Source of the DNA: a virus
Lineage: Duplodnaviria; Heunggongvirae; Uroviricota; Caudoviricetes
DNA length: 35,939 bases
IMG/VR virus record: IMGVR_UViG_2627853983_000005
Strand: one strand, 5' to 3'
Within the stretch, counting starts at the first letter, position 1, and each line of letters starts with the position of its first letter. A model generated the notes under the pieces. The model was not told the DNA's origin. It saw only the letters and a list, made by a program, of their open reading frames with translations, and searched no databases. Shown piece after piece: positions 9,625 to 33,225 of the stretch. The position numbers and the translations under genes were made by a program.

Positions 9625-9966
9625 TCAGCCAACATTGCGGCCTGATCGGGGTGATTTTTGGGTAATACCGATTGAAACCTGATCGCCCTCCGACTGAATA
9701 GATCCATCAAGAGAGAGAGCCGGAGCAATCTGCCCGGCGACAGGTAGCGTCTTATCTTTTATTAGCCACAGCATGTATTTTTCAAAGCGATCGACTTGCA
9801 GAACCGCCTCAACGATTTTTGCTCTAGCGTTCTTTTGCCCCGATTCGTAATTCCTTATGGTTGCCAAAGACAACCCAGTAATATCCGCAAACTGCTTTTG
9901 TGTTAACCCTTCCGCCTTACGTATCTGACGTAACTTTTTTGCGTAGTCTATTGACAAGATAACCAT
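9625..9966 (-). CDS. C: Immunity repressor C (HTH)
   Basis: HTH ...LTQKQFADITGLSLATIRNYESGQ and QIAPAL motif resembling recalled P2 C; start taken at ATG 9966 (ORF track uses TTG at 10020). Confidence 0.8.
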   Translation of the reverse strand: MVILSIDYAKKLRQIRKAEGLTQKQFADITGLSLATIRNYESGQKNARAKIVEAVLQVDRFEKYMLWLIKDKTLPVAGQIAPALSLDGSIQSEGDQVSIGITQKSPRSGRNVG

Positions 9967-9987
9967 TTGAGTATTAACCTCTCGCAC

Positions 9988-10011
9988 AAAGATAACCTTT
10001 TGGTTATCTTT
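9988..10011. promoter_or_regulatory. Operator-like palindrome in C/cox promoter region
   Basis: AAAGATAACC-TTTT-GGTTATCTTT perfect 10-bp inverted repeat 22 bp upstream of C start. Confidence 0.5.
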
Positions 10012-10070
10012 ACAAGCCAAAACAAACCATCACAAGGCGCGACAAGCGCACCAACGCAAGAGGATAACAA

Positions 10071-10592
10071 ATGCGGGACTTCATTGCCGATAAAGAGTTA
10101 TCTGACCACCAACCACTTCAGGAAAGTGACGCACTCAGCGGATCCATTGATGCCGCCAACGACGACGAGCACGAAGAAAACAAGAAAAAGCGTTCCTACA
10201 AAAAAGGAGCGACTTTGCGGCTGGATGGTCCGATCGCCGGGCTTTGCTCTCTGGAAAAAGGCGCGGCATATATTGGGCTAACAAAATCTGCACTGCGCGT
10301 AGCCATTCATCGCGGTCAAATGCCGGGACACAAGACGCGCACAAACCCGGAAGATGAAAACTCAGACGGAGTATGGTGGTTTAACGCCAAAGAGTGGGAC
10401 AAGTTGGCTGATGAGCTACCAGAGCACGAGCCCCCAGAATGGCACAACTGGAAAAGTTACTGGACGTATGACCGCCAGAAAAGGAAGTTCTCTCCAGCTA
10501 ATAAAGAAGACTGCCAGACCATTAACGGTAAGCGAGTTTATACAGGCAGAAGCTCAAAACTGGACCAACTCAGAAACAACAGAGGCAACTAA
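10071..10592 (+). CDS. Cox/Apl-like early regulator, putative excisionase
   Basis: First gene of rightward early operon, facing C; central HTH-like segment AAYIGLTKSALRVAIHRGQMPG; acidic N-terminus. Alternative TTG start at 10215 with AAGGAG RBS. Confidence 0.5.
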   Translation: MRDFIADKELSDHQPLQESDALSGSIDAANDDEHEENKKKRSYKKGATLRLDGPIAGLCSLEKGAAYIGLTKSALRVAIHRGQMPGHKTRTNPEDENSDGVWWFNAKEWDKLADELPEHEPPEWHNWKSYWTYDRQKRKFSPANKEDCQTINGKRVYTGRSSKLDQLRNNRGN

Positions 10593-13089: not shown

Positions 13090-13352
13090 CCATTCTGGAC
13101 TACATCGCTACTCATCCGGGGTGTAGCGGCGGAGAGATCGCCGCAGCACTGAATACTCCAACCACAGCCATTAATGCTGAGTTACGCCAACTTTGGCGCG
13201 GCGGCTTAGTCATCAGAACAAACCGCAGCACAGGTGGTCGCGCTCGCAAAACTGGAGGCCAGGCTTCTTACCACGTAAACCCGATGCCGTTCGGGTGTAG
13301 CAATCCACTTACTCACATGTTTAACCAGCTACTGAAGGAAGCCAGAACATGA
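13086..13352 (+). CDS. Hypothetical early protein, possible winged-helix
   Basis: 88-aa ORF translationally coupled to neighbours. Confidence 0.55.
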   Translation: MTILDYIATHPGCSGGEIAAALNTPTTAINAELRQLWRGGLVIRTNRSTGGRARKTGGQASYHVNPMPFGCSNPLTHMFNQLLKEART

Positions 13353-13648
13353 GCACCATCAACCACCAGAAGCTACGCGAACTGGCATTTGCCCTGCAAC
13401 GAATGGCAACACCTCAAAAATTACTGGCATTTCGCGCAATGCTCTCGCCGTCTGCTGCGCTGGCATTGCTGGATGAGCTGGAGCACGCCAGAACCACGGC
13501 TCCTGCCATTCGCCTGACGCTCCATCATGAAATCGCTGATTTCTGCGCGACATTGGAGGTGCCAGGCGAACCGGAAACGCCGGAAGCAATACAGCAAGAG
13601 CTGCTGCAACGTATTGACAAGGTTTTTGATTTTTTTCTGAACCAGTAA
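13349..13648 (+). CDS. Hypothetical early protein
   Basis: 99-aa ORF translationally coupled (ATGA overlap). Confidence 0.55.
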   Translation: MSTINHQKLRELAFALQRMATPQKLLAFRAMLSPSAALALLDELEHARTTAPAIRLTLHHEIADFCATLEVPGEPETPEAIQQELLQRIDKVFDFFLNQ

Positions 13649-13970
13649 GAAACCAGAGCATGCACACACAAAAAAACCGCTTGCCATGCCGCAATCAGTC
13701 AGGTTACATTTCCGCTGCACCTCATAAAACGGGTGCCGGGTTTCGCAGCCTGCTGACTACACAAGCGCACAACCGCGCCAGCGGTTTTTTTGTGCGTACT
13801 GTATTGCCACGTTTTTTTCGCGTCAGAATTATGGCGGGGCGTACGGGGCCGACTTCGGTCGGGCCGGGTTCTTGTGTAGCCGGTACTGCGAACCTCGTAC
13901 GTCTCGCCACCCACAGTTTCGCAGCTCTGGATGGTGAGTTTTCACAACTTACTACACAAGGGGCCACACC

Positions 13971-14201
13971 ATGGCAAACCGCAAACAGCACCGCGCTATC
14001 GCGGAGCGTCGTCACATCCAGACTGAAATCAACCGCAGACTTTCCCGCGCATCACGCGTCGCGCAAATCATGCACATCAATATGCTGCATGAGCGCAGCC
14101 ACGCACTATCAAACATTTATTCCGCCTCTGTTTTCAGCTATCTGGCGGATGATCTGCACGAGCTTCAACAGCTCATCCAGCAGCAAAACAAACTCCATTA
14201 A
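13971..14201 (+). CDS. Hypothetical small basic protein
   Basis: 76-aa ORF with AAGGGG RBS after a structured non-coding stretch. Confidence 0.45.
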   Translation: MANRKQHRAIAERRHIQTEINRRLSRASRVAQIMHINMLHERSHALSNIYSASVFSYLADDLHELQQLIQQQNKLH

Positions 14202-14273
14202 TTCCTGTTCCGGGCCTTTCCTGCACCTTGCGGCGGGAGGCCTTCGCACATCTGTAACAAGAGGATTGCCGCA

Positions 14274-14639
14274 ATGATTCTCGCCAACGACTTTCTTGAA
14301 TACCTGCTCAATACAGAACGTGATCTTGCCGCTCGCGTGCGTGATCGTTATGACATGTACCTGAAATCCCTGCCTGTACCGCAGCTCGCTGACGGAAAGA
14401 TTGTTATTGATGGTCGCTACATGATTGACAGCCACGAGGGAAATTACAGGCTTTACCGCATTGAAGGTGGCACCCCGTCCGTTATTGGCATTTACCAGCG
14501 CCCATCCTCTGCAATCGTCGATGTGATTGCCGACAGCATCCGCATCACACATCGCCATGCCGACACAGAAGACACCGTGCTGGAAATTCAGCGGCTGGCT
14601 ACAGTCTGCCGCGACACCCTGAATGGCATGACGAAGTAA
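14274..14639 (+). CDS. Hypothetical early protein upstream of A
   Basis: 121-aa ORF with AAGAGGA RBS. Confidence 0.55.
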   Translation: MILANDFLEYLLNTERDLAARVRDRYDMYLKSLPVPQLADGKIVIDGRYMIDSHEGNYRLYRIEGGTPSVIGIYQRPSSAIVDVIADSIRITHRHADTEDTVLEIQRLATVCRDTLNGMTK

Positions 14640-14645
14640 ATCACT

Positions 14646-17468
14646 ATGACGGCAGAGTACCTCAGGGACTGGCAACAACCGCGCCACGCAGTGGGGCGTG
14701 AAGGAACGGGGATCCCCGCTCCTGAATCCGCGCTTTCCTCCTGGCTGGATGCCTACCGGGCAGAGAACGAGCGCCGCCAGGAAATGGCTGATGCGGCGTT
14801 CTCAGCCACGCCGCTGGGCAACCTGATTAATAAAAGCCTGGACGCACAGGAAAAACAGGACAAAACCATCACACTGGCAGGAGACGCCAGAAAACAGGCA
14901 CGTGGCGCGGTGGATGAAGCCATGGCCTCGCTGCGCCTGCTGCCGTCCTATCTGCGCGATCCGCTTATTCGCCACCTCTCCTTCCTGCGCAAAAAACAGG
15001 AAGCCGATCGCCGGAAAGGCAAAAAGAGCTGGCAGGCGGAACGCTATGCACGCGGAACCCTGCGCAAAATATTCGAACGTCTGGATAGCACTGACGGACG
15101 CTGGCTGACACCGGGTTATCGCTCCCTTGCCGGACGCGAACGCCTGGACGATTTGCTTTACCTGCCGCAGCTCAACAAACACCAGATACAGACGCTGGCC
15201 ACCATGACGGCGGCGATGTTCAGCAGCACCTTCGAAAAACTCTGCGATGGCTTTGGCGCGACCGATGGCGAGCTGACCATGGATGTAACCCTGAAGGCGT
15301 ATCAGATGCTGGCCCGCATGGCGTTACACCTGCACGCCATGCCTCCACATTATGACGCACTGACAACAGACAAAGACCGGAGGAACGAACCGGACACGGA
15401 GCTGCTGCCGGGCGCAATCCTTCGCCTGACCTGTGCGGAATGGTGGAAACGCAAACTGTGGCTGTTACGTTGCGAGTGGAGAGAAGAACAACTCCGCGCC
15501 GCCTGTCTGGTTTCCAGAAAAACATCACCCTATCTGAGCCAGGACGCGTTAAGCGAGTTTCGCGCACAGCGCGAGAAAACACGCGATTTCCTGAAAAGTT
15601 TCATGCTGGAAAATGAAGACGGGTTCACGATTGATCTCGAGACAGTGTATTACGCGGGAGTAAGTAACCCGGTTCACCGTAAGGCAGAAATGATGGCCAC
15701 CATGAAGGGACTGGAACTTCTGGCCGAAGCCCGTGGCGACAAAGCGGTGTTTCTGACTGTCACCTGCCCGTCAAAATACCACGCCACAACGGAGAACGGT
15801 CATCCGAATCCCAAATGGAACGGGGCCACAATGCGCGACTCCAGCGATTACCTGGTTAACACGTTTTTTGCGGCGGTCCGCAAAAAACTGAACCGCGACG
15901 GCCTGCGCTGGTATGGCATCCGCACGGTGGAGCCTCATCATGACGGCACCGTGCACTGGCATATGATGGTCTTTGCACATCCGGAAGAAATCGACACCAT
16001 TGTGTCCCATACCCGCGATATTGCCATTCAGGAAGACCGCCACGAGCTGGGCAATGATATTACTCCGCGCTTTAAGGTGGAGTATGTCGACGGCTCAAAA
16101 GGCACGCCAACCAGCTACATCGCCACCTACATCGGAAAGAACCTGGACAGCCGCGCCGTGGATGGCATCGACCCGAAAACGGGCAAGCCACGCGTGGACC
16201 ACGAAACCGGAAAATCAATGGCCGAGAGCGTGGAGCGCGCCATCGGCTGGGCGCGCCTTCACCGGGTCCGTCAGTTCCAGTTCTTTGGCATCCCCTCCCG
16301 TCAGGTGTGGCGTGAACTGCGCCGCCTTGCCAGCCAGATGGCACGCAATCCGGAAGGCCCGCAACGGCTGAAAGATGATGCAATGGATGCGGTACTCGCT
16401 GCCGCCGATGCCGGGTGTTTTGCCACCTACATTGAAAAACAGGGTGGCGTGCTTGTTCCACGCAAGGACTACCTGATTCGCACCGCCTACGACCTCGCAG
16501 ATGAGCTGAACGATTACGGCGAACAGAGCGTACAGATTTACGGGATCTGGTCACCACTCATCGGGGAATCCTCCCGTGTGTGCACGCATCCGGATAACTG
16601 GAAGCTGGTAAGACGTAAACCGGAAGCGGAAGACAGCGCCCGCGAAAATGGTTTTGACCTTCAGGGCGGCCCTGCCGCCCCTTGGACTCGTGGCAATAAC
16701 TGTCCCCGTGTACAGGAAACGGACAACAACGGGACAGAACAGCCGGAAGAACGGCCAGCACCGTGGCCGCAGCTCCCTGACGGCGTTGAAGTGAACGAAT
16801 GGATGCGCTCACTGAAACGACACGAACGCCGGGCGCTGATGCGTTCGCTTCGTGACAAACAGGCAAAAAACAGCAGCGATGAAATGCAGAGCTGGACACA
16901 GAGCCGCAAACAGCAGCGGCCTTTGCCTGATAACCACGAATTACTCGCTAAAGAATGGCGGGAGTCTGCTGAATCTCTCGGCCTGCATATCGGTGAACAA
17001 CAGATGCAGCACCTGTTACGGGGCGGCAGTCTGTACGTTGACGGCAGCATCATTGCACCGCAGGGATTTGAAATTGTACGCAAACCGGATACCCGCCCGG
17101 ACAGCCGAATCACGCAGCTCTGGCAGCGCCTGAGCCGTAATCATGGCGTAAGCAGCACGGAGATCCGCCATAACCCGGTCGCCAGCTATCTGGCACAGCT
17201 GGGGGCATCAGACCCTGAAGCCGCCGCACGCCTGGCATCCACACTTCAGCAGGGCCAGAACACCATGAAAACACCCGTTACCGTGCTTTCTGACATGCTG
17301 CGCGCCATCCGCGACGCAGAGCACGCACAGAGAATCAGTGAAACCACTGAACGCGCCAGCCGCAAAGCAGACCTGCTGCGGGGTGGCCTGACCAGTGGAA
17401 ACAAAAAACAGACAGAAACGGGACTTACGAATCCCGTAAATGAGCAAAAAACGCGCAGCGATATATGA
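14646..17468 (+). CDS. A: Rolling-circle replication initiator gpA (HUH endonuclease)
   Basis: HUH motif HHDGTVHWHMMVFAHP and paired-Tyr motif TSYIATYIGKN; 940 aa, about 180 aa longer than recalled P2 A at the C-terminus. Confidence 0.9.
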   Translation: MTAEYLRDWQQPRHAVGREGTGIPAPESALSSWLDAYRAENERRQEMADAAFSATPLGNLINKSLDAQEKQDKTITLAGDARKQARGAVDEAMASLRLLPSYLRDPLIRHLSFLRKKQEADRRKGKKSWQAERYARGTLRKIFERLDSTDGRWLTPGYRSLAGRERLDDLLYLPQLNKHQIQTLATMTAAMFSSTFEKLCDGFGATDGELTMDVTLKAYQMLARMALHLHAMPPHYDALTTDKDRRNEPDTELLPGAILRLTCAEWWKRKLWLLRCEWREEQLRAACLVSRKTSPYLSQDALSEFRAQREKTRDFLKSFMLENEDGFTIDLETVYYAGVSNPVHRKAEMMATMKGLELLAEARGDKAVFLTVTCPSKYHATTENGHPNPKWNGATMRDSSDYLVNTFFAAVRKKLNRDGLRWYGIRTVEPHHDGTVHWHMMVFAHPEEIDTIVSHTRDIAIQEDRHELGNDITPRFKVEYVDGSKGTPTSYIATYIGKNLDSRAVDGIDPKTGKPRVDHETGKSMAESVERAIGWARLHRVRQFQFFGIPSRQVWRELRRLASQMARNPEGPQRLKDDAMDAVLAAADAGCFATYIEKQGGVLVPRKDYLIRTAYDLADELNDYGEQSVQIYGIWSPLIGESSRVCTHPDNWKLVRRKPEAEDSARENGFDLQGGPAAPWTRGNNCPRVQETDNNGTEQPEERPAPWPQLPDGVEVNEWMRSLKRHERRALMRSLRDKQAKNSSDEMQSWTQSRKQQRPLPDNHELLAKEWRESAESLGLHIGEQQMQHLLRGGSLYVDGSIIAPQGFEIVRKPDTRPDSRITQLWQRLSRNHGVSSTEIRHNPVASYLAQLGASDPEAAARLASTLQQGQNTMKTPVTVLSDMLRAIRDAEHAQRISETTERASRKADLLRGGLTSGNKKQTETGLTNPVNEQKTRSDI

Positions 17469-17544: not shown

Positions 17545-18504
17545 ATGAAAATTTGTATCGACGACGGCTCCACCAACATCAAGCTGGCATGGACTGAGAA
17601 TGGCGAACGCCGCAACGCCATCAGCCCGAACAGCTTCAAGTCGGAATGGTCTGCGCCGTTCGGTGGCATGCAGCCCGCGAACTACATGCTTGATGGCGTG
17701 CGCTATGGTTTTGATCCGGTTAGCGATCGCTTTGTCCAGACGACCGACACGCAATACCAGTACAGCGATGTGAATGTAATCGCCATTCATCACGCGCTGG
17801 TCAAATCAGGCATCACGCCACAGGAGGTGGATGTGGTTGTCACCCTGCCACTGAGCGAGTATTTCGACACAAACGCACAGCCGGACATGGCCAACATCAA
17901 CCGCAAAAAAGCGAACGTTATGCGCCCGGTGGAATACCAGAACGGCGAAGCATTCACTATCCGTAACGTGCGGGTTATGCCTGAATCCATTCCGGCTGGC
18001 TTTAAAGCACTGGCTGACATGAGTCCGTTTGAATCCCTGCTGATTGTGGATTTAGGCGGAACCACGCTGGATGTGGCAAAGGTTCAAGGGCAACTGGCAG
18101 GTATCAGCCAGGTGTTTTGCGATCCACACGTAGGCGTTTCCCTGATGGCCGATGCCGTACTGTCGGTGATGGCCACTAACGGTATGCGCACCAGTCACCA
18201 CATCGCCAATACCATTATCGAACATCGCCATGATGAAGCCTGGCTGCGCCAGCACATCCACAATGACGCGCATTACGCCAGCCTGATGGCGGTTATTCGT
18301 GAAAAGGAAGAAACACTGAAACAACGCGTGATCCGCGCGCTGGCGGTTTTTTCGGGTTACGGGCGGGTGATGGTTGTCGGTGGAGGGGCGGAGATTGTGG
18401 CACCCGCTATCCGCGAAGTCTGCGGAGTTAATGCGACTTTCATCGCGGACGGGGTGCCACAGTTTGCTCTGGTTAATGGGCTGTACGCAATGGACAAGGA
18501 GTAA
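17545..18504 (+). CDS. parM: Actin-like segregation ATPase, ParM/StbA family
   Basis: N-terminus MKICIDDGSTNIKLAW...ISPNSFKSEW...YQYSDVNVIAIHHAL matches recalled R1 ParM/StbA phosphate-binding motifs; 319 aa. Confidence 0.9.
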   Translation: MKICIDDGSTNIKLAWTENGERRNAISPNSFKSEWSAPFGGMQPANYMLDGVRYGFDPVSDRFVQTTDTQYQYSDVNVIAIHHALVKSGITPQEVDVVVTLPLSEYFDTNAQPDMANINRKKANVMRPVEYQNGEAFTIRNVRVMPESIPAGFKALADMSPFESLLIVDLGGTTLDVAKVQGQLAGISQVFCDPHVGVSLMADAVLSVMATNGMRTSHHIANTIIEHRHDEAWLRQHIHNDAHYASLMAVIREKEETLKQRVIRALAVFSGYGRVMVVGGGAEIVAPAIREVCGVNATFIADGVPQFALVNGLYAMDKE

Positions 18505-22595: not shown

Positions 22596-24346
22596 CAGAA
22601 CTCCATAACCATGAAACGCTCGTTTTCTCCTTCGCCGCCAATTGGTTCGTTAATGACAGCAAGCATGGTTGCCCACGCAAGGTCGCCGTGGCTGATCCCC
22701 CTCGCGCGGTCCGTTTCGTAAGTGATAAAGCCGCCCGGTGTTTTCACCTTACGCACGGCGTTAAAGGCCGCGACCAGCTCGCGTTCGGCGCGATCGTATT
22801 CCCACCGCCCGGCACGCATTATTTGCAGCATTTTCAGTACCAGCGACCGTTTTGATGACAGCGTGAAGGTGTACGGAATAGCAGCAGGGAAAAACCGCTT
22901 CACTATCTGATAAACAGCCTCCCCGTTCCCGCCCGTCACATCAATGCCGATGTGTTCCACGTTGTAGCGACACGTGAACTCTTCAATGACTCTGGCCTGT
23001 TCTTCAAACTCCAGCCCCTGAACGCGTCGCGTCTCCACCGTTCGAAAACGGCCGCCAGGAACAGCCGGAGGAACCACCACGGACACAGCGCCGCTGTCGC
23101 CGTTGCCACTACTGCCGTTTGCGTCATACCCAATCCATACCGGACGATTCCCCATCGGGCGGGGAGCAAAAGGTTTCCAGTCTTTCCAGTCGTCGTATCC
23201 GTCAACACCGCAGCCAATCAGGATATTCAGGTTAAATGCCGATTCCCCTTCGCGGACAAACTCACACATATAGAGATTGAGGAACTCGTCTTCGGTGTTT
23301 TCATCACGAATTTCGTCGATATCGGTGTGTTTCCAGCCGTGATTAACCACATCTTCCAGCGTGACAATTTGCCGCCACGTCCGGTCAGGGCAGATAAGCC
23401 CATTATGCAGCGTTTTCCAGTCCACAGAAAAACGCTGGCGTTTATGCGAGGCCTTTTTCTCGTTCCAGCGGTCGCCGTTCCAGTAGGCGTATGCCTCGTG
23501 CGTTTCGGTGGATGGCGTGGAGAAGTAGGTGCGCCGCAGTCCGCTGAGGGTTGCCATAGCGCCAGCCACCTTGCGCAGTTCAGCAAAGCGACTGACCCAG
23601 AAAAATTCATCAAAATAAAAATTGCCCGTATAGGACTGTGCCGACGCAGCAGAAGTGCCGAGAAAATGCAGCTCTGCGCCGTTGGAGAGGATGATTTTAT
23701 CGCCCCCTTTCAGCTCCACATCAACTTCAGCCGCGGCCTTCTGAATAATGCTTTTAAACTGGAACGCCTGACGACGCGACGCAGACAAAAAAATCTGGTT
23801 ACGCTGGTAAGGTTGCGCCACATCGTCACGCAGCGCCATCAGCAGTGCTTCCTGTGCAAAATACCAGGTCGCCCCAATCTGTCGGGATTTCAGGATCATC
23901 CTGTTACGTATCCCGGCTTCCCTGCAAAGGGTCAGGGAGTCAAACCAGCCCCGCTGATGCCACTCCAGCCTGCTGATGATTTTTTCCCGCAGTGCGGCAA
24001 TCTGTTCCGGCGTGAAATGATTTTTGAGTTTTTTCGCCCGGCCTTTCTTTCCTGCGGCCATCACATCCGGCTGGCCATCATGCAGCTTTTTAAGCTGCCG
24101 GGTCAGCAGGTCTATTTCCTTAAAGTCACCGCCTGTTTTATTCTGTTTTTCAGTAAGCTGGATGAGGCGCGCATCGATGGACTGCGTGACACGCTGCACG
24201 GGTGGCGTTTCATCCCACTGGTCACGTTTTTTCCACGCATAAATCGTGTTCGGGTTTATTCCCATCAGACGTGATATTTCTGCGGGCGGATAACCCTGCC
24301 AGTAAAGTTGCCGCGCACGCTGGCGCACAAAAGCGTCCTGAATCAT
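22595..24346 (-). CDS. P: Terminase large (ATPase) subunit gpP
   Basis: 583 aa; N-terminal HTH; Q-P pair divergent from O as in P2. Confidence 0.9.
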   Translation of the reverse strand: MIQDAFVRQRARQLYWQGYPPAEISRLMGINPNTIYAWKKRDQWDETPPVQRVTQSIDARLIQLTEKQNKTGGDFKEIDLLTRQLKKLHDGQPDVMAAGKKGRAKKLKNHFTPEQIAALREKIISRLEWHQRGWFDSLTLCREAGIRNRMILKSRQIGATWYFAQEALLMALRDDVAQPYQRNQIFLSASRRQAFQFKSIIQKAAAEVDVELKGGDKIILSNGAELHFLGTSAASAQSYTGNFYFDEFFWVSRFAELRKVAGAMATLSGLRRTYFSTPSTETHEAYAYWNGDRWNEKKASHKRQRFSVDWKTLHNGLICPDRTWRQIVTLEDVVNHGWKHTDIDEIRDENTEDEFLNLYMCEFVREGESAFNLNILIGCGVDGYDDWKDWKPFAPRPMGNRPVWIGYDANGSSGNGDSGAVSVVVPPAVPGGRFRTVETRRVQGLEFEEQARVIEEFTCRYNVEHIGIDVTGGNGEAVYQIVKRFFPAAIPYTFTLSSKRSLVLKMLQIMRAGRWEYDRAERELVAAFNAVRKVKTPGGFITYETDRARGISHGDLAWATMLAVINEPIGGEGENERFMVMEF

Positions 24347-24500
24347 TGCTCCCCCTGAGTAATTACAGGAAGATTACCCGCGCGCGAAACTGTTCTCCTT
24401 AACCCTCTGTTCTGACTGTTTTCTTACAACAAAAGCCCTTTGTATCAGCCTGTTACGCTTTGCCATCATGACTGAAGAACCAGTCAGAGGGGCAAAAACT

Positions 24501-25337
24501 ATGGCTAATGAAAAAAAGACATCCCGCAAAAAGTTTCGCGTGGCTGTCTCCGGATCAACTGTTGATGGCCGTGAAATCAGTCCGGTGCATCTGCGTGAAG
24601 CCGCCGAGAACTTCAACCCGGATGTTTACGCTGCCCGCGTGAACGTTGAGCACTATCTCTCGCCATGTCCGTCAAGCGAATTTTCCGCAATGGGCGATGT
24701 CACCGCACTGAGTACGGAAGACATTACGGAAGGTCCGCTGGCCGGACGTACTGCGCTGTATGCAGAAATCGAACCGACCGAGCGCATGAAGCAGCTTGTC
24801 GCTGACGGCAAGAAAATCTATTCCAGTATCGAACTGCACCCGCAGTTCTCCGTTAACGGGCGCGCCTATCTGGTCGGGCTGGCGATGACCGACACCCCGG
24901 CAAGCCTGGGCACTGAGCGCCTGAAATTCACGGCACAGCAACGTCAGGCGGTGATGACGTTCAACAGTATCCAGGGTGAAGCACCGCTTATCTCCGAAGC
25001 CATCGAGTCTGAAATCATCGAAATGGCAGAACAACGCCAGGAAGAAGGCACCCAGTGGTTTAACCGCGTAATGGGGATTATTGGTCGTGGCCGCAAAGCG
25101 GATGACGCCAGTTTCTCCCGAATTCAGGAAGCGGTGGAAGGCGTTGCAACGTCACAGGCCGACATTATCGACCGTTTTAATGTGCTGGAAACCCGCCATC
25201 AGCAGGACCGCCAGAAAATCACGTCACTGACCACAGAGCTGACAGCATTGAAGGAAAAACTGCGCACGCAGGACGGCGATCCGCAGAACCGCTTCACCGC
25301 AACGGGCGCAGCCTCCGACCAGCTGGCTGACTTCTGA
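24501..25337 (+). CDS. O: Capsid scaffolding protein gpO
   Basis: ATG 24501 with GAGGGG RBS; motifs FRVAVSGSTVDGREIS and GRAYLVGLAMTDTPASLGTE match recalled P2 O. Confidence 0.85.
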   Translation: MANEKKTSRKKFRVAVSGSTVDGREISPVHLREAAENFNPDVYAARVNVEHYLSPCPSSEFSAMGDVTALSTEDITEGPLAGRTALYAEIEPTERMKQLVADGKKIYSSIELHPQFSVNGRAYLVGLAMTDTPASLGTERLKFTAQQRQAVMTFNSIQGEAPLISEAIESEIIEMAEQRQEEGTQWFNRVMGIIGRGRKADDASFSRIQEAVEGVATSQADIIDRFNVLETRHQQDRQKITSLTTELTALKEKLRTQDGDPQNRFTATGAASDQLADF

Positions 25338-25360
25338 TAAGACAAAGGAGCAAATTTTTT

Positions 25361-26413
25361 ATGAATCTGGTGATGTCAGATATTACCCGCAACAAGCTGG
25401 GTTGCTATATGGCGCAGCAGGCGTCGCTTAACAATATCCCGGTATCTGCACTGGTATCGCGATTTACCGTGGAACCCGCGGTGCAGCAGCGTTTTGAAAA
25501 CGCCTCAAAGGAAAGTACCGAATTTACGAAAAGAATTAACGTGATCGGCGTGACCGACCAGAAAGGCGAAAAAATCCTCCTGGACACCACCGGGCCAATT
25601 GCGCGCACGAATAGCAGTTATGACGGCATCAAACGCCGTAACCCGAATAACGTGATCGATATGAAGTCTCGTCAGTACCAGTGCGAACAGGTGAACTACG
25701 ATACCTTTATTTCGTACCCACAGCTTGATACCTGGGCGGCCCACAGCGATTTTCAGTCCCGTATCAGTACACAGATCGCCCGGCAGGTAGCGCTTGATCG
25801 CATCATGATTGGCTTTAACGGCACATCCCACGCCTACGAGTCTGATTTTCACACCAACAAGCTGCTTCAGGACGTTAACGTGGGCTGGCTGGAGCACATC
25901 AGAACCGATGCCAGCGAGCGCGTAATGAATGACGTGACGCTGACCTCCCGCAACATGGACAACACTGTGGCGCACGCGGGTAAGTATGCGAATGCCGATG
26001 CTCTGGTACAGGATGCGCGCTCATCCCTGCTGGATGAATGGCACAAGGAAGCTGACGACCTCGCGGTGATTATGGGGCGCAACCTGTTTAACTCGCTGCG
26101 TCTGCCCGTGCTGAACAGCATCAGCGGCCAGAATCCCAATGCGGAATTACTTGCCGGGCAGCTCATCCTGTCATCGCGCACCATTGGCGGGCTGGGCGTG
26201 TTCCTTGCGCCGTTCTTCCCGGATGCAACGATGCTTATCACCTCGTTCAACAACCTGTCGATTTACTGGCAGAAAGGTTCAATGCGTCGCCTGATGAAAG
26301 ACGAGCCGGAATACAACCGCATCGCCACCTACCAGTCCATCAATGACGCTTATGTCGTTGAAGACTATGGCAAGTGCGCGATGGTCACTGGCCTGAAGTT
26401 CGCCGACAGCTAA
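25361..26413 (+). CDS. N: Major capsid protein gpN
   Basis: 350 aa following O; AGGAG RBS. Confidence 0.9.
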   Translation: MNLVMSDITRNKLGCYMAQQASLNNIPVSALVSRFTVEPAVQQRFENASKESTEFTKRINVIGVTDQKGEKILLDTTGPIARTNSSYDGIKRRNPNNVIDMKSRQYQCEQVNYDTFISYPQLDTWAAHSDFQSRISTQIARQVALDRIMIGFNGTSHAYESDFHTNKLLQDVNVGWLEHIRTDASERVMNDVTLTSRNMDNTVAHAGKYANADALVQDARSSLLDEWHKEADDLAVIMGRNLFNSLRLPVLNSISGQNPNAELLAGQLILSSRTIGGLGVFLAPFFPDATMLITSFNNLSIYWQKGSMRRLMKDEPEYNRIATYQSINDAYVVEDYGKCAMVTGLKFADS

Positions 26414-26422
26414 TCAACTCAC

Positions 26423-26441
26423 GGCGGGCATCATGCCCGCC
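26423..26441 (+). promoter_or_regulatory. Stable hairpin just after capsid gene
   Basis: GGCGGGCAT-C-ATGCCCGCC: 9-bp stem with 1-nt loop, no T-run; possible partial terminator or mRNA stabiliser. Confidence 0.35.
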
Positions 26442-26458
26442 TGTAACGGAGAGAAAAA

Positions 26459-27259
26459 ATGATTACTCCTGCACAACAACACTGGCAGAACGTGATGGCA
26501 CAGCGCGCAGGCCGGGCGAATGAAGGTGTGGACCACGCCGCGTGTACCGCGCATGAAGAGGTGCTGTATCGTCTGCGTCTGGCACAGGCCAGGCTAAAGG
26601 CCATACAGGCCAGAAGCGCGAAAGCCGCCATCAAAAAAGAGTTGTTGCCGGACTTTTCCGGCTGGATTGAGGGAACGCTGGAGGCTGACGGCGGGCAACA
26701 GGACGAAGTAATTGCCACGCTGATGGTGTGGGCGATTGACTGCGGCGATCTTCCGCTGGCGCTGCGTATTGGTGCATATGTGGTCCGTCACAACCTCATC
26801 ATGCCGGATAACTTTGGCCGTACTGCTGCCACGGTACTGACCGAAGAAATCTGCAACCCGGTACTGACGCAGGCTGGGACGGATGCCGACGCGGATTTAT
26901 CCGCCTTTATCGAACCACTGGACACACTTTGGGAAATTATCGCCAACCAGGACATGCCGGACGAAGTGCGCGCCAAATTATGCAAGGCGTGTGCCTTTGC
27001 CCGTCGTGGCCTGACCGATGCAGACAACATGGCCTCATCACTGAAGCTGCTGCGCGAAGCGATGCACCTGAACCCGAACGCAGGTGTGAAACGCGAGATT
27101 GCAACCCTTTCCCGCGCCCTGAAAAAAGCCGATTCCGCAGCCGAACCAGAAGACGCCAGCGCACAGCAGGCGCAGGACGAAAGCAGCAAAAGTAAAAAGA
27201 CAACGCGGAAGCCTGCAACACGAAAAACCACCGCGACGCAGAAGGCAAAGCGCGGTTAA
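26459..27259 (+). CDS. M: Terminase small/endonuclease subunit gpM
   Basis: 266 aa after N; basic Lys/Arg-rich C-terminal tail. Confidence 0.85.
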   Translation: MITPAQQHWQNVMAQRAGRANEGVDHAACTAHEEVLYRLRLAQARLKAIQARSAKAAIKKELLPDFSGWIEGTLEADGGQQDEVIATLMVWAIDCGDLPLALRIGAYVVRHNLIMPDNFGRTAATVLTEEICNPVLTQAGTDADADLSAFIEPLDTLWEIIANQDMPDEVRAKLCKACAFARRGLTDADNMASSLKLLREAMHLNPNAGVKREIATLSRALKKADSAAEPEDASAQQAQDESSKSKKTTRKPATRKTTATQKAKRG

Positions 27260-27360
27260 CGACTGACCCCGTCAGCGGGCGGCGTGCGCGGTGTTCCGGT
27301 TTGACTCCGTGACCGTTTACACCGCGCACCCACCGCCCGATTTTTTCAGGAGTGAACCCC

Positions 27361-27855
27361 ATGAGTATGGTTGCCAGAACTAACCCCGGCCCCGCAGAGG
27401 ACGACATCACCGACACCGATGATGGCGATACCCGTATTTCAGCGGGTGCATTCTGGCCGGATATTGTGCTGCGCGAGCTGCGTCTGGCGGTACGACTGCC
27501 GGGCCGCGTGACCACCTCCCGCCTGCTGCATACCGCCACCGGGGCCATAGCACACGTTACCCGCGAGCTGGAAGCATGGCAGCAGGAACAACAGGCGGCT
27601 GGCTATCAGACGCTGGCCGATGTTCCGGCCCCTGTAATTAACGGAGAAAGCGTCAATCTCTGGCACTGGCGCAATGCTGTTTATACCGCCACACGCGCCC
27701 TGATTCTGGAGCGTTACCGCGATGCGGACACAACGGACAAGGGCGACCGCCGGGCGGACGCACTGGATATACAGACATCGGATTTGTGGCGCGATGTGAG
27801 CTGGGCCATCTCTGACATTCTGGGACGACCGCGAATGTTTGCGGAGCTGTGCTGA
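27361..27855 (+). CDS. L: Head completion/stabilisation protein gpL
   Basis: ATG 27361 with AGGAG RBS; 164 aa; position as P2 L. Confidence 0.8.
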   Translation: MSMVARTNPGPAEDDITDTDDGDTRISAGAFWPDIVLRELRLAVRLPGRVTTSRLLHTATGAIAHVTRELEAWQQEQQAAGYQTLADVPAPVINGESVNLWHWRNAVYTATRALILERYRDADTTDKGDRRADALDIQTSDLWRDVSWAISDILGRPRMFAELC

Positions 27856-28055
27856 TGAAAGTGAAGGCACTGGAAGGCGACACCGTGGATTCGCTCTGTT
27901 TCCGGTACTACGGCACGACACAGGGCGTCACCGAAAAGGTGCTGGATGCCAACCCCGGACTCTGTCAGCAGGTATTTCTGGACGCCGGGCAGGAAGTGGA
28001 GATGCCGGAGCCGGAGAAGAAGAAACGAGAAATGATTCAGTTGTGGGGGGAGTAG
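27849..28055 (+). CDS. X: Tail protein X (LysM-like)
   Basis: 68 aa between L and holin as in P2. Confidence 0.75.
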   Translation: MLMKVKALEGDTVDSLCFRYYGTTQGVTEKVLDANPGLCQQVFLDAGQEVEMPEPEKKKREMIQLWGE

Positions 28056-28057
28056 CA

Positions 28058-28381
28058 GTGAGCACCATTCAAACAGGGATCACAGAGCAGGTTATTGCGT
28101 GGCTCTTTGACCACCTGCCAACGGTGTATGCAGTAGGCGCGGCGGTCAGCATTTCCGCGCTGATGAGTCTTTATGACGGACGAACACTGGTTCAGACCGT
28201 AACGGGATCGCTGGCGTGCGGCGTTCTTGCCATGGCCGTGGCCGGGTCGCTGCGCTTCTTCGGGATCCCTGAGGATGCAGTGACGTTTTTTGGTGCCTCA
28301 ATCGGTTTTATGGGCGCAGAGAAAGCACGCGACAAGGTTATTGCAATATTTGATCGCAGGGTGAAGGAGAGGAACGAATGA
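28058..28381 (+). CDS. Holin (putative, 3 TM helices)
   Basis: GTG 28058 after GGGGGG; hydrophobic segments; immediately upstream of endolysin. Confidence 0.6.
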   Translation: MSTIQTGITEQVIAWLFDHLPTVYAVGAAVSISALMSLYDGRTLVQTVTGSLACGVLAMAVAGSLRFFGIPEDAVTFFGASIGFMGAEKARDKVIAIFDRRVKERNE

Positions 28382-28770
28382 GCAACACATTTAAATTCAG
28401 CAGCCGGAGCGAAAAGAATTTGCAGGGTGTAAATCCTGATCTGGTGAAAGTGACCCGACGGGCGCTGGAAATCTCGGAAGTGGATTTTGGTATCACCGAA
28501 GGATTGCGCAGTCGTTATCGTCAGAAGCAGCTCGTGACCACAGGCAAGAGCCAGACCATGAACAGTCGCCATCTCACAGGGCATGCCGTGGATGTTGTGG
28601 CTTATGTCGGCAACCAGGTGTCATGGGAATGGCCGCTGTACGAAAAAATCGCAGCAGCATTCAGACAGGCCAGCCAGGAACTGAATATTCCGGTGGAATG
28701 GGGCGGCGACTGGAAGACCCTGAAAGACGGACCGCATTTTCAGTTACCACACGGAGCCTATCCGGCATGA
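28378..28770 (+). CDS. Endolysin, L-alanyl-D-glutamate peptidase (M15 family)
   Basis: Motifs SRHLTGHAVDVV and DGPHFQL typical of M15/VanY-like phage endopeptidases; 130 aa. Confidence 0.75.
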   Translation: MSNTFKFSSRSEKNLQGVNPDLVKVTRRALEISEVDFGITEGLRSRYRQKQLVTTGKSQTMNSRHLTGHAVDVVAYVGNQVSWEWPLYEKIAAAFRQASQELNIPVEWGGDWKTLKDGPHFQLPHGAYPA

Positions 28771-29162
28771 AGCTCTGGCCCACGCTTGGCGTCGCTTTCC
28801 TTCTGATTACATCCATGCGTCTGTCGTGGTCGCTGGGCCGGGAGAACGCCAGAAACGAAGCGCAGGCCAGCACCCTGAAAAGTACCGTCGACACACTGAA
28901 TATCATCAGCGCCGGGGTACAGGATATGCAGCAGGTGCTGGCTCAGCTCCGCGCGGAAAATCAGCAACGCAATCAGGACGGAGAGGTAAGACGTGAACAG
29001 CTACGCAACGATATTGCAAAAGATGAATGCGCCCACGCTTTGCCTGACGCTCGTTTTACTGACAGGTTGCGCAGGCACGCAGAACGCGCCAGGGCCAGCG
29101 CCGTCAGTCCGGCTTATACCGCAGACGCTGACCATGCCGGTAACGCCTCCCCCCTTCCCTGA
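28767..29162 (+). CDS. i-spanin (Rz/LysB-like)
   Basis: ATG overlaps endolysin stop; N-terminal TM then coiled-coil; next ORF embedded out of frame. Confidence 0.6.
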   Translation: MKLWPTLGVAFLLITSMRLSWSLGRENARNEAQASTLKSTVDTLNIISAGVQDMQQVLAQLRAENQQRNQDGEVRREQLRNDIAKDECAHALPDARFTDRLRRHAERARASAVSPAYTADADHAGNASPLP

Positions 29163-29304
29163 CCCACCCACATGGGGAAACCTCGGAATATGGGGCGACC
29201 GCCTTCTGGATGCACTGGAAACCTGTAACGCGGATAAACGGGCCATTGCTGAACTGGATAAGAGAATAGCCGAACTGACACACCAGACGGGAGTAACACA
29301 ATGA
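29023..29304 (+). CDS. o-spanin lipoprotein (Rz1/LysC-like)
   Basis: Lipobox LLTGC after signal peptide; Pro-rich; embedded in +1 frame of i-spanin. Confidence 0.6.
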   Translation: MNAPTLCLTLVLLTGCAGTQNAPGPAPSVRLIPQTLTMPVTPPPFPDPPTWGNLGIWGDRLLDALETCNADKRAIAELDKRIAELTHQTGVTQ

Positions 29305-31178: not shown

Positions 31179-31201
31179 GGAAGAGCAGGAGAGCAAAACA
31201 G

Positions 31202-33222: not shown

Positions 33223-33225
33223 ATC

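Follow-up and report, generated by a model that had tools for sequence, protein, structure and literature searches.

In phage P1, an antisense RNA processed from the same transcript pairs with the a2 and b2 sites where ribosomes bind for the first gene downstream, which prevents expression of the anti-repressor, and the specificity alleles of P1 and P7 define heteroimmunity. The Rfam family RF01695 was presumably seeded from the C4 RNAs of these two phages. In the satellite P4, inactivation by the epsilon protein works by binding of the P2 C repressor. P1, P7, and N15 employ systems of similar structure (PMC3632133), and the P4/P1 family is characterized by antisense control of both translation and transcription termination before replication or anti-repressor genes (PMC4825925, PMC3632133). 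IsrK, which is structurally homologous to P4 seqA, has a processed RNA downstream (PMC4825925). Hfq binding by IsrK and its trans-activation of a read-through mRNA are known for Gifsy-1 alone, and the published Gifsy-1 model emphasizes trans-activation by the short IsrK and translation of orf45 from the conserved AUG in AAUUAUGG more than repression by the C4-like RNA (PMC4825925).

Here we analyzed a 35,939-nt stretch of DNA (the window), in which region 13650-13970 is probably a P4/P1-type antisense-RNA immunity cassette ('IsrK-C4' or 'seqA-CI-seqC'), placed within the early operon of a prophage that is P88-like and belongs to the P2 family. The cassette is an instance of a known system; its RNA genes are unannotated here and sometimes mis-annotated as 'ash family protein'. 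Judged by analogy with P4 CI, P1 C4, and Gifsy-1 IsrK, from which the mechanism is inferred, it most likely switches off a downstream anti-repressor gene and a replication gene.

Genomic context and distribution

The 35.9-kb window is a P88-like prophage (Xuanwuvirus, P2 family) with an IsrK-C4 cassette inside the rightward early operon. The order of genes here begins with the minus-strand gene for a P2 C-like repressor (9625-10020) and continues with cox (10071-10592), the gap under study, and gene A (14646-17468). An earlier, sequence-only reading of this DNA had described the gap as a non-coding, highly structured stretch inside the early operon. The gene order bears out its placement, and most RefSeq/GenBank copies have no protein gene annotated in 13649-13970, while in some copies a CDS or pseudo-CDS named 'ash family protein' occupies this place. 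The structure is real as well: the fold of 13655-13800 beats chance (-55.5 kcal/mol, z -4.4), and the C4 part reaches a z of -4.5.

Of the complete E. coli genomes, approximately 24% carry the IsrK-C4 element, ST131 and O157:H7 among them, and the isrK and C4 Rfam pair is also present in all six other phages first examined and in loci L010-L012. A profile search of genome contigs with the epsilon alignment recovered six loci only. The canonical P2 early region (24000-33593) has no isrK or C4 Rfam match; thus, the cassette is not a general P2 feature. No description of an IsrK-C4 cassette in P88-like phages was found in literature searches. A tRNA/tmRNA search across the window gave no hits, and no LexA box was detected near the cassette, the sole CTGT-N8-ACAG of the window being located inside gene A.

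IsrK-like and C4-like RNA genes

A covariance scan against Rfam, proposed in the sequence-only reading as a check, yielded tandem, full-length matches to isrK and C4 on the plus strand, both above their gathering scores. The IsrK-like part of the cassette includes the following features:

13681-13710, plus strand: putative promoter P_isrK, with -35 hexamer TTGCCA, an 18-nt spacer, and -10 hexamer TACATT (consensus scan)
13717-13791, plus strand: IsrK-like RNA (65.2 bits with Rfam RF01394, whose gathering score is 50; model positions 1-77 of 77)
13717-13736, plus strand: hairpin 1 of the IsrK-like RNA
13737-13752, plus strand: IsrK hairpin 2, carrying target b1 (13740-13748)
13757-13765, plus strand: target a1 in the single-stranded linker of the IsrK-like RNA
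13771-13786 with U7 at 13785-13791, plus strand: IsrK intrinsic terminator (terminator scan)

The predicted start of P_isrK lies at about 13717, and the -10 hexamer TACATT ends 6 nt before IsrK position 1. A -35/-10 pair occurs at an equal distance from IsrK position 1 in all eight lineages compared (P4, four lambdoid phages, and three P88-like phages), and the hexamers are kept in 96 of 97 related loci. At the consensus level, the 75-nt IsrK-like RNA appears to have its own promoter and its own Rho-independent terminator. Its isolated fold is unexceptional relative to shuffled sequences (z -1.0).

The second RNA gene starts 35 nt past the 3' end of IsrK and has the following elements:

13827-13914, plus strand: C4/CI-like antisense RNA (Rfam RF01695, 83.2 bits against a gathering score of 45, E-value 4e-15, model positions 1-87 of 87)
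13832-13848 with 13893-13909, plus strand: 17-bp closing stem of C4, enclosing hairpins 1 and 2
13849-13862, plus strand: C4 hairpin 1, with core CCGAC/UUCG/GUCGG in both the Rfam alignment and the minimum free energy (MFE) structure
13863-13884, plus strand: C4 hairpin 2, with recognition segment a' as its loop
13871-13879, plus strand: recognition segment a', CUUGUGUAG, in the hairpin 2 loop
13886-13893, plus strand: recognition segment b', CUGCGAA(C), unpaired

The MFE structure of C4 is the Rfam structure (-47.7 kcal/mol, z -4.5). The GC-rich UUCG hairpin pointed out earlier, GGCCGAC-TTCG-GTCGGGCC, is present at 13847-13865, with its core at 13849-13862. Conservation of the predicted pairings in relatives is complete for the C4 helices: in the eight lineages all 27 pairs are 100% paired, 12 of them with compensatory changes, while none of 500 shuffles reached the observed value and slid controls were at most 45% paired. 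The 5' context AAUUAUGG is conserved, and the 3' tail is CC(C)A, which in the window reads C-CCA and resembles the end of a tRNA.

The consensus scan revealed no correctly placed promoter directly before C4. The promoter-like site TTGCCA-17-AATTAT (13804-13832) is probably not a C4 promoter: the start would fall approximately 7 nt inside the closing stem, the -35 element is not conserved in P88 or Shae_phiSM, and the spacer in lambdoid cassettes is just 24 nt long at this place. By analogy with the known systems, we infer that a stable C4 RNA of ~77-80 nt is released from a longer transcript by RNase P-type processing.

Three options had been offered for the gap: a small RNA, a terminator/antiterminator element, or an accessory origin. 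The first two are essentially right and belong to one joint system, since two small RNAs with Rfam matches above gathering scores are encoded and the intrinsic terminator (13771-13786 plus U7) ends the IsrK-like RNA; the third did not stand. The RNA family, the trans-pairing target sites, and the epsilon-like gene described below had not been recognized in the sequence-only reading.

Recognition segments and their targets

The recognition segments a' and b' of C4 are complementary to a1 and b1 inside IsrK and to two further sites between C4 and the next gene:

13916-13924, plus strand: downstream target b2, GUUUCGCAG, complementary to b'
13952-13960, plus strand: downstream target a2, CUACACAAG, running into the Shine-Dalgarno sequence AAGGGG (13958-13963)

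Three matches to the a motif exist in the window (a1, a2, and the complement of a'), compared with 0.18 expected, and the b motif occurs in the 35.9 kb as b1 and b2 only. In the MFE structure of the long transcript (13717-14000), a1/b1 are paired in cis with a'/b'. All eight lineages have a2 abutting the Shine-Dalgarno sequence, ~8 nt before the ATG, and each lineage possesses its own recognition sequences, matched at all sites.

The 17 P88-like loci represent 12 types, whose cognate sets pair at 29-35 of 38 positions versus a mean of 24 for non-cognate sets; 11 of the 12 types show cognate pairing of 33-35, and the value of 29 reflects misalignment caused by an indel in L011. Among 97 related loci, we counted 12 alleles of a' and 5 of b', which form 17 combinations. 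The recognition and target sites co-vary perfectly across these types: a' pairs with a1 at 9/9 positions in each of them and with a2 at 8-9/9. Sequence entropy over the 97 loci peaks at the six recognition and target sites (0.6-0.9 bit vs at most 0.3 elsewhere). Natural a'/b' alleles are exemplified by CUGUAGUUG/GUGGAAA in P88 and CUUUGCUCU/UUGAGAA in the O157 type. The anatomy of the cassette, together with this allele diversity, argues for specificity-dependent immunity that would operate via repression of the downstream genes.

Genes downstream of the cassette

Three genes follow the cassette:

13971-14201, plus strand: gene for an epsilon-like 'derepression' protein of 76 aa (32.7 bits with Pfam PF25738, cutoff 27; phrog_3688)
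14274-14639, plus strand: ORF121, no assigned function
14646-17468, plus strand: gene A, encoding a gpA-type replication endonuclease (Phage_GPA, 437 bits)

The epsilon-like gene is the first after the cassette, with its ATG at 13971 and the Shine-Dalgarno sequence AAGGGG at 13958-13963, and its product is 29% identical to P4 epsilon over 66 aa (BLASTP, E-value 4e-9). The phage repressor is a homologue of P2 C (36% identity, E-value 2e-23). Since P4 epsilon renders the helper phage's repressor inactive (PMC8628076) and the repressor of this phage is a P2 C homologue, the epsilon-like protein is, by analogy, most likely an anti-repressor of P2-type C repressors. Such a role would make the arrangement a P1-like two-part immunity, in which a repressor is combined with an RNA-controlled anti-repressor. 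ORF121, which has no similarity to P4 orf151, and gene A are presumed to be under cassette control through polarity.

Long inverted repeat and predicted terminator bypass

A repeat search identified two complementary arms around IsrK:

13664-13684, plus strand: upstream inverted-repeat arm, ACACACAAAAAAACCGCTTGC, comprising an A7 tract (13670-13676) plus ACCGC
13777-13797, plus strand: downstream inverted-repeat arm, GCCAGCGGTTTTTTTGTGCGT, comprising the terminator loop, the 3' stem half, the U-tract, and GUGCGU

The arms are 21 nt each, lie 92 nt apart, and are complementary at 19 of 21 positions (90%). This score exceeds the maximum of 16 obtained with 200 dinucleotide shuffles of 13650-13970, none of which reached 19. 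An inverted repeat had been noted here before as an 18-bp element at 13665-13685 and 13773-13796; its existence holds, with the length and coordinates corrected as above, and the nested dyads seen between its arms are the three IsrK hairpins.

The upstream arm is located directly 5' of the -35 hexamer, within the conserved cassette (left edge at ~13668), and hardly varies across the 97 loci, although the genes upstream of it come in at least three different arrangements. The same near-invariance holds for both arms; A6/T6 length changes occur in single loci and are anecdotal. The upstream arm is a candidate for an UP-element-like A-tract and/or for an anti-terminator strand exclusive to transcripts started upstream. 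In folding of a 5'-extended RNA, it is predicted to displace the terminator hairpin. Disabling of the IsrK terminator by the inverted repeat in upstream-started transcripts only would possibly be a new feature. The predicted bypass in 5'-extended transcripts is not consistent in P4 or Stx-phage cassettes; this modeled behavior is either lineage-specific or an artefact of equilibrium folding.

Proposed mechanism

The proposed mechanism comprises the following steps: (i) in the lysogen, the cassette's own promoter would be active, and the IsrK terminator would stop most transcripts, (ii) the read-through transcripts would be cut, with RNase P-type processing at the 5' side and a CCA-like 3' end, to give a stable C4-like RNA, (iii) this RNA would pair with b2 and a2 in cis and in trans and block ribosome binding at the epsilon-like gene, and (iv) the block of epsilon translation would lead to premature, probably Rho-dependent, termination before ORF121 and gene A. 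The excess of C over G downstream does not surpass that of the neighboring genes and is uninformative for Rho utilization. Through the block of translation and the premature termination, the anti-repressor and replication functions would be kept off in the prophage itself as well as in superinfecting phages that share its specificity.

The a1/b1 sites would form an upstream cis-target, as in P4 seqA. When carried by the short IsrK RNA, they may be a decoy that titrates C4, the activating role reported in Gifsy-1. Because the published Gifsy-1 model is one of positive control (PMC4825925), the net sign of regulation could depend on the IsrK:C4 ratio.

A broader proposal is more tentative, and we consider it possible though doubtful. 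It holds that P88-like phages carry a second RNA immunity layer, with at least 17 specificities, that gates the epsilon-like anti-repressor and gene A, and that the inverted repeat is a promoter-selective anti-terminator. RNA started at the cassette's own promoter would end at the IsrK terminator and keep immunity in place, whereas in transcripts from the repressor-controlled early promoter Pe the upstream arm would block the terminator and allow read-through to epsilon and gene A. If true, this arrangement could explain the inducibility of a P2-like phage lacking a LexA-controlled tum gene, and a recent shared origin would be suggested for the P4 immunity-epsilon block and the P88-like helper-type cassette.

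Alternative explanations

The recognition segments are extremely diverse, with 17 combinations in 97 otherwise near-identical loci, as expected of an arms race or heteroimmunity. One may ask, then, if the cassette is mainly a weapon against other mobile elements and less a device of self-regulation, with C4 silencing replication or anti-repressor genes in incoming P88-like, lambdoid, and P4-like elements that have matching targets and the epsilon-like protein derepressing rival P2-like prophages. The b' allele CTGCGAAC is indeed common to lambdoid Stx phages and an integrase/TOPRIM island, an anti-satellite role has been proposed for such cassettes in lambdoid prophages (PMC3632133), and P4 epsilon acts on the repressor of a heterologous phage (PMC8628076). 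However, perfectly matched cis targets precede the own epsilon-like and A genes in every cassette, so that self-control is built in, and none of the non-P88 elements examined matches both the a and the b specificity of the window. We regard a predominantly offensive function as unlikely; it is, moreover, compatible with the immunity-cassette explanation.

The canonical terminator at 13771-13791, together with the long-range pairing predicted to remove it in 5'-extended transcripts, would also be in line with a passive transcription stop or attenuator that consists of a terminator and hairpins and has no functional trans-acting RNA; this is the terminator/antiterminator option of the sequence-only reading in isolation. 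Such a device leaves unexplained the match to the C4 model, the compensated helices, and the three-way co-variation, seen in 97 loci, between loops and targets, which makes it very improbable.

Hardly any weight can be given to the explanation that ORF 13660-14277 is a genuine gene for an 'Ash family' protein, with the conserved structure resulting from protein-coding constraint. The ORF is present (205 aa, ORF205), its frame lacks stop codons in 17 of 17 variants examined, it matches Pfam Phage_ASH (PF10554) exactly at the cutoff (26.0 vs 26 bits) and several PHROG 'transcriptional regulator' families, and PGAP annotates an Ash CDS in some genomes, often marking it as partial or pseudo. A 45-codon ORF from a conserved AUG was reported to be translated in Gifsy-1 (PMC4825925). 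However, the Phage_ASH match covers aa 16-108, or nt 13705-13984, which is exactly IsrK, C4, and the downstream targets, and the P4 member of the Ash family is the old 'cI' ORF (59.7 bits), although the P4 immunity factor is the CI RNA (PMC4825925, PMC3632133). The variation tracks RNA pairing, not codons, as the non-genic status assigned to this ORF from the sequence alone would imply: compensated +1/-1 indels in three loci replace 56 codons completely with all RNA pairings kept, and substitutions at sites 100-200 nt from one another compensate each other. The ORF also overlaps the epsilon-like gene in a different frame, and few stops are expected in GC-rich structured sequence, the other frames having 1-2 stops per 93 codons. 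A translated protein under coding constraint is rejected as the main explanation on these sequence grounds; some translation across C4 may occur, since the frame is open in all 17 variants.

An accessory replication origin, suggested by a non-coding, repeat-containing stretch upstream of a replication gene, can practically be dismissed, because 13650-13970 has no iterons (the a, b, and I1 motifs are explained by RNA pairing or the terminator, and the other two-copy short repeats look like chance), no DnaA-box-like sites, and no AT-rich unwinding block (GC content 0.41-0.64), the P2 origin is annotated as a nick site inside gene A, and lambdoid phages, P4, and other islands, whose replication systems are unrelated, carry the same cassette.

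Implications

Read as an antisense-RNA immunity cassette, the 320-bp 'empty' gap becomes a pair of RNA genes whose regulatory circuit can be tested. On this reading, IsrK-C4 RNA immunity is not confined to P4 satellites, P1, and lambdoid phages, and extends to helper-type P2-family phages, where it is coupled to a homologue of the protein by which P4 derepresses P2. This coupling has a bearing on helper-satellite co-evolution and on the induction of P88-like prophages. The 17 natural specificity alleles constitute a ready orthogonal set of short RNA-RNA recognition pairs. Finally, it appears that IsrK-C4 RNA, in translated form, is what the Pfam 'Ash' family and a number of PHROG 'regulator' families represent. 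Since PF10554 has been used as an 'epsilon' marker in searches for P4-like satellites (PMC8628076), P88-like prophages and lambdoid cassettes can be miscounted.

Comparison with known systems

The lambdoid Stx-phage cassettes have the same Rfam pair and the same a2-Shine-Dalgarno-ATG layout. In lambdoid phages, N-type antitermination of the operon transcripts is expected. The Gifsy-1 locus of Salmonella (isrK - orf45 (STnc1160) - anrP) combines an IsrK that has a promoter of its own and a terminator that leaks, a processed RNA of ~80 nt downstream of IsrK, and an anti-repressor gene immediately downstream (PMC4825925). Structure A of Gifsy-1, in which the middle of IsrK pairs in cis with the downstream RNA (PMC4825925), is reproduced in the MFE structure of 13717-14000 in the window. 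The downstream anti-repressor is of the Rha/Ant type in the Gifsy-1 and Stx cassettes and epsilon-like in the window.

With the immI region of P1 and P7 (C4 - icd - ant), the window shares the RNA family RF01695 and the regulatory logic proposed here. The controlled protein is epsilon-like (76 aa) in the window and Icd/Ant in P1. The primary repressors differ as well, being of the P2 C type in the window and C1 in P1, and the window also has a replication gene downstream.

A close likeness exists to the experimentally defined P4 immunity region (P_LE - seqA - CI (seqB) - seqC ... epsilon ... alpha), which contains isrK and C4 in identical order and orientation. The P4 seqA region matches the isrK model with 60.8 bits and the P4 CI RNA matches the C4 model with 74.9 bits; the IsrK-like RNA is the equivalent of the P4 seqA leader, and P_isrK is the positional equivalent of P_LE. 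Comparison of the two loci revealed several common features: (i) a promoter directly precedes the leader, which has an intrinsic terminator at its end, (ii) the recognition segments are complementary to one upstream and one downstream set of targets, with an a site abutting the Shine-Dalgarno sequence downstream, and (iii) an epsilon homologue and then a replication gene are located downstream. The a1/b1 targets are already curated in Rfam as c4-a1b1 (RF03163, clan CL00128), which overlaps the isrK matches in P4-like loci; the a1/b1 region of the window is below the RF03163 gathering score and is captured by the isrK model instead.

The differences between the two loci concern both sequence and setting. 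The recognition segments are CUUGUGUAG (a') and CUGCGAA (b') in the window versus CCUGUGAA and UUCUCAC in P4, and IsrK is separated from C4 by 35 nt versus 107 nt. The first ORF after a2 is epsilon-like in the window, whereas in P4 it is another ORF and epsilon follows ~245 nt after CI. The 21-nt inverted repeat around IsrK is present in the window and absent from P4. Unlike that of P4, the window cassette is located inside an operon whose driving promoter lies upstream and is controlled by a repressor. Lastly, P4 is a satellite, whereas the window encodes a full P2-type phage of the helper class, with capsid, tail, gpA rolling-circle initiator, C-like repressor, and cox.

An IsrK-C4 RNA cassette in the early region of a P88-like prophage

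The gap at about 13650-13970 is flanked by a 99-aa ORF on the left (13349-13648) and a 76-aa ORF on the right (13971-14201). Its neighboring genes are P2-like and include a C repressor homolog (36% identity to P2 C, E 2e-23), cox, and a gpA-type replication endonuclease gene (gene A; Phage_GPA, 437 bits). Escherichia phages vB_EcoM-569R5 and vB_EcoM-705R2, as well as an ST131 'P88-like' prophage record, match the region at 100% identity; phage P88 matches it at 94% and Citrobacter phage Shae_phiSM at 90%, these last two being classified in the genus Xuanwuvirus, family Peduoviridae. A 336-bp query over the gap has matches in 1283 of 5426 complete E. coli genomes. No RNA gene is annotated at the gap in the RefSeq and GenBank copies inspected, some of which instead have a CDS or pseudo-CDS there named 'ash family protein', and the window contains no tRNA or tmRNA.

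The sequence-only reading had proposed a small RNA in the gap and an Rfam search as a check. The whole window, scanned at gathering thresholds, yielded exactly two matches above cutoff, isrK and C4, both in the gap and on the plus strand, and the small-RNA proposal is borne out by these matches and by the co-variation of the targets. The cassette has the following parts:

13681-13710, plus strand: promoter-like site TTGCCA-18-TACATT from a sequence scan, ending 6 nt before IsrK position 1
13717-13791, plus strand: isrK match (RF01394; 65.2 bits, cutoff 50); in the IsrK-like RNA, two hairpins are followed by a single-stranded linker and then a terminator (13771-13786 plus U7)
13740-13748: b1, inside IsrK, complementary to a C4 recognition segment
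13757-13765: a1, inside IsrK, complementary to a C4 recognition segment
13827-13914, plus strand: C4 antisense RNA match (RF01695; 83.2 bits, cutoff 45)
13871-13879: a' CUUGUGUAG, in the loop of C4 hairpin 2
13886-13892: b' CUGCGAA, in an unpaired stretch adjacent to the a' hairpin
13916-13924: b2, complementary to a C4 recognition segment
13952-13960: a2, complementary to a C4 recognition segment

The two RNAs are separated by 35 nt. A -35/-10 pair occupies the matching position in P4, as the counterpart of P_LE, in four lambdoid phages, and in three P88-like phages. The minimum free energy fold of the C4-like RNA (-47.7 kcal/mol, z -4.5) is the Rfam consensus. Across eight lineages (the window, P88, Shae_phiSM, P4, and four lambdoid Stx-type phages), 27 of 27 helix pairs are kept in each sequence, with both-side changes in 12 pairs; this level was matched by 0 of 500 shuffles, and register-shifted controls reached at most 45%. 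Site a2 enters the Shine-Dalgarno sequence AAGGGG, 8 nt ahead of the ATG of the epsilon-like gene. The a motif has three copies in 35.9 kb, all in the cassette (0.18 expected), and the b motif occurs there only as b1 and b2. From a second sigma-70-like site, TTGCCA-17-AATTAT (13804-13832, plus strand), transcription would begin some 7 nt into the closing stem of C4; this site is probably not a promoter, its -35 element being weaker in P88 and Shae_phiSM (TCGCCA), the spacing being absent from lambdoid cassettes, and AATTAT being conserved C4 5' context.

The structures reported earlier from sequence were recovered: the GC-rich hairpin, closed as C(UUCG)G, lies at 13849-13862, hairpins are present between both arms of the inverted repeat, and the repeat itself, displaced by a few bases from its claimed coordinates, spans 21 nt (13664-13684 and 13777-13797) with 19 of 21 positions complementary. 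The best of 200 dinucleotide shuffles of the region reached 16 of 21, and none equaled the observed value.

Co-variation of recognition sites and their targets

In the sequences compared, the strongest evidence for the identity of the cassette is co-variation. The a' and b' sequences differ in each of the eight lineages, all four targets fit their own a' and b', and a2 adjoins the Shine-Dalgarno sequence in all eight. The 17 P88-like loci, elsewhere 85-97% identical, fall into 12 types of specificity. Of the 38 possible pairs, 29-35 form in cognate sets, versus a non-cognate mean of 24; eleven types have 33-35, and the low value of 29 results from indel misalignment in locus L011. With 80 further loci from IMG/VR (97 in all), we observed 12 alleles of a' and 5 of b', which occur in 17 combinations, with a':a1 pairing of 9/9 in every type and a':a2 pairing of 8-9/9. 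The six recognition sites have a sequence entropy of 0.6-0.9 bit, against at most 0.3 bit for the promoter, stems, terminator, and spacer. Such site-limited variation is what is expected of RNA-RNA recognition under diversifying selection for specificity (heteroimmunity); P1/P7 and P4/phiR73 reportedly show the same pattern.

Lambdoid Stx1/Stx2 phages and an integrase/TOPRIM-DUF927 island have in common with P88-like phages the b' allele CUGCGAAC and its target GUUUCGCAG (L007 1616-1703, L009 1602-1689, and L028 3140-3227, compared with window 13886-13893), and the a' allele differs in each element carrying this b'. Recognition segments seem to have been exchanged or independently re-invented, and partial cross-talk between unrelated elements sharing b' is conceivable.

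A mainly 'offensive' function of the cassette, directed against other phages or satellites, is compatible both with the allele diversity and with the sharing of b' alleles by unrelated elements; since every cassette also targets its own genes, we treat this as an additional role and not as an alternative. The terminator suggested by the sequence-only reading is present as an intrinsic terminator (13771-13786 plus U7), but a purely passive terminator leaves the C4 model match and the three-way co-variation unexplained. The accessory replication origin, also suggested there, has no supporting features.

The 'Ash' reading frame

The only ORF across the region, ORF205 (205 aa, 13660-14277), had been described as looking non-genic, and the comparison agrees. 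Its match to Pfam Phage_ASH is exactly at the cutoff and covers aa 16-108 (nt 13705-13984), the RNA module alone. The frame is open in 17 of 17 variants examined, and one or two stops are all that the other frames contain in this GC-rich stretch; in three loci, compensated +1/-1 indels rewrite 56 codons with all RNA pairings retained. The family also matches the old 'cI' ORF of P4 (59.7 bits), whose immunity factor is the CI RNA and not a protein (PMC4825925, PMC3632133). It further matches a lambdoid 'antirepressor' CDS (42.8 bits), in a spurious extension of the N-terminus that precedes a genuine Rha domain. The pattern is similar for several PHROG 'transcriptional regulator' families. The 'Ash' ORF, we conclude, arises as a by-product of a structured RNA that is conserved. 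As a caveat, translation is reported in Gifsy-1 for a short ORF that begins at the conserved AUG of AAUUAUGG (PMC4825925); this AUG is at 13831 in the window, in the frame of ORF205.

Translations of the IsrK-C4 module in the window (13705-13984, ORF 13660-14277), L003 (8168-8584, minus strand), and L006 (1441-2304) give hits to Pfam PF10554 ('Ash protein family') and to PHROGs 995, 6928, 821, and 3960 ('transcriptional regulator/repressor'), the matches including the old cI ORF of P4 and the over-extended N-terminus of the lambdoid antirepressor CDS. At the module, PGAP calls an 'ash family protein', often pseudo, and no ncRNA. PF10554 served as an 'epsilon' marker for P4-like satellites (PMC8628076); true epsilon is PF25738.

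Proposed mechanism

From P4, P1, and Gifsy-1 we infer the steps that would connect the parts, the fold, and the co-varying complementarities observed here. The cassette promoter would be independent of the C repressor and therefore active in the lysogen. Most transcripts would stop at the IsrK terminator, and processing of the read-through RNA would yield a stable C4-like RNA; the conserved 5' context AAUUAUGG and the CC(C)A 3' tail fit an RNase P-type substrate. Pairing of C4 with b2 and a2 would block the ribosome-binding site of the epsilon-like gene, and termination of the RNA, left untranslated, would follow ahead of ORF121 (14274-14639) and gene A. Upstream, a1/b1 would be the cis-target, and as part of free IsrK RNA these sites may in addition titrate C4.

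P4 epsilon acts through binding of P2 C. Because P4 epsilon disables the helper phage's repressor (PMC8628076) and the window repressor is P2 C-like, the epsilon-like protein is probably an anti-repressor. A probable RNA-gated anti-repressor together with the C repressor would therefore constitute a two-layer immunity, as in P1. P88 was obtained after mitomycin C treatment (PMC5285337). Neither a LexA box near the cassette nor a LexA-controlled, tum-like anti-repressor arrangement was found in the window; the single CTGT-N8-ACAG in 35.9 kb (16700-16715) is within gene A and looks like chance. The cassette might play a part in induction, but this is speculative.

Long inverted repeat

The 3' arm of the repeat consists of the terminator loop, 3' half-stem, and U-tract. 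The 5' arm (A7 plus ACCGC) is just upstream of the -35 element and therefore present only in RNA started further upstream, for example at the repressor-controlled early promoter Pe. In equilibrium folding, the terminator hairpin has a probability of ~0.85 in RNA from 13717 and at most 0.07 in RNA from 13687 or further upstream for most 5'/3' ends tried, even when the RNA stops where the stem ends (0.21 at the longest extension, 200 nt, with that 3' end). With the U-tract exposed, the long helix has a probability of ~0.75, and forcing the terminator costs ~7 kcal/mol. P88 behaves likewise for 5' extensions up to 80 nt; at 120-200 nt, for RNA that stops where the stem ends, its terminator probability returns to 0.23-0.71. 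The P4 and Stx-phage cassettes showed no consistent effect on the terminator in such folding.

This difference would make sense if lambdoid transcripts are N-antiterminated and a P2-type early operon has to find a different route past a terminator that precedes gene A. Both arms are almost invariant in the 97 loci, which makes a covariation test impossible, and the A-tract could equally be a UP-element-like promoter feature. We therefore regard a promoter-selective terminator bypass, a purely thermodynamic prediction, as a tentative and rather doubtful reading of the repeat.

Gene setting of the cassette

The left edge of conservation is near 13668. Directly 5' of it, P88-like phages carry at least three different genes (an Ead/Ea22-like ORF, an SPFH-domain protein, and a DNA-binding protein; L005, L010, L012, and L022 compared with the window, L004/L024, and L023), and this edge marks a recombination boundary as well as a slot for accessory genes immediately ahead of the cassette. 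The gpA-type protein (14646-17468) has 940 aa versus 761 aa in P2 (2286-nt CDS), with the Phage_GPA domain at residues 179-503 and long N- and C-terminal extensions outside it. Directly 3' of gene A is a complete ParM-type plasmid segregation ATPase (17545-18504, plus strand; StbA_N 275 bits, ParM_N, the ParM C-terminal domain, 231 bits), which hints at a plasmid-like maintenance option for the prophage. Near-identical enterobacterial P88-like or P4-like IsrK-C4-epsilon cassettes occur under non-enterobacterial labels, on a Vagococcus sp. contig (L012) and in MAGs labeled bacterium isolate W0P28.011, Ferruginibacter, and Clostridiales (L013-L015), most likely through contamination or mis-binning in those assemblies.

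Comparison with known systems

The cassette is absent from the early region of canonical P2. In the literature searched, we found no description of it in a helper-type P2-family lineage, joined directly to an epsilon homolog and a gpA gene, nor of the breadth of natural specificity alleles or the predicted promoter-selective terminator bypass. P4 has isrK and C4 matches in the same order as the window within its experimentally defined immunity region: the seqA leader (8692-8615), the CI RNA (8507-8420), and then the epsilon gene. The 76-aa ORF of the window is an epsilon homolog (Pfam Derepression 32.7 bits, cutoff 27; 29% identity to P4 epsilon, E 4e-9). The Rfam family of C4 targets a1/b1, RF03163, scored in the P4-like loci L013 and L015. 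IsrK is a structural homolog of P4 seqA, and in Gifsy-1 a processed RNA, STnc1160, lies downstream of it (PMC4825925). In the minimum free energy fold of 13717-14000, a1/b1 are paired with a'/b', as in 'structure A' of Gifsy-1. The RNA families, architecture, and mechanism are already well known, and the finding is ordinary in kind; the Rfam check proposed in the sequence-only reading would have been enough to resolve it.
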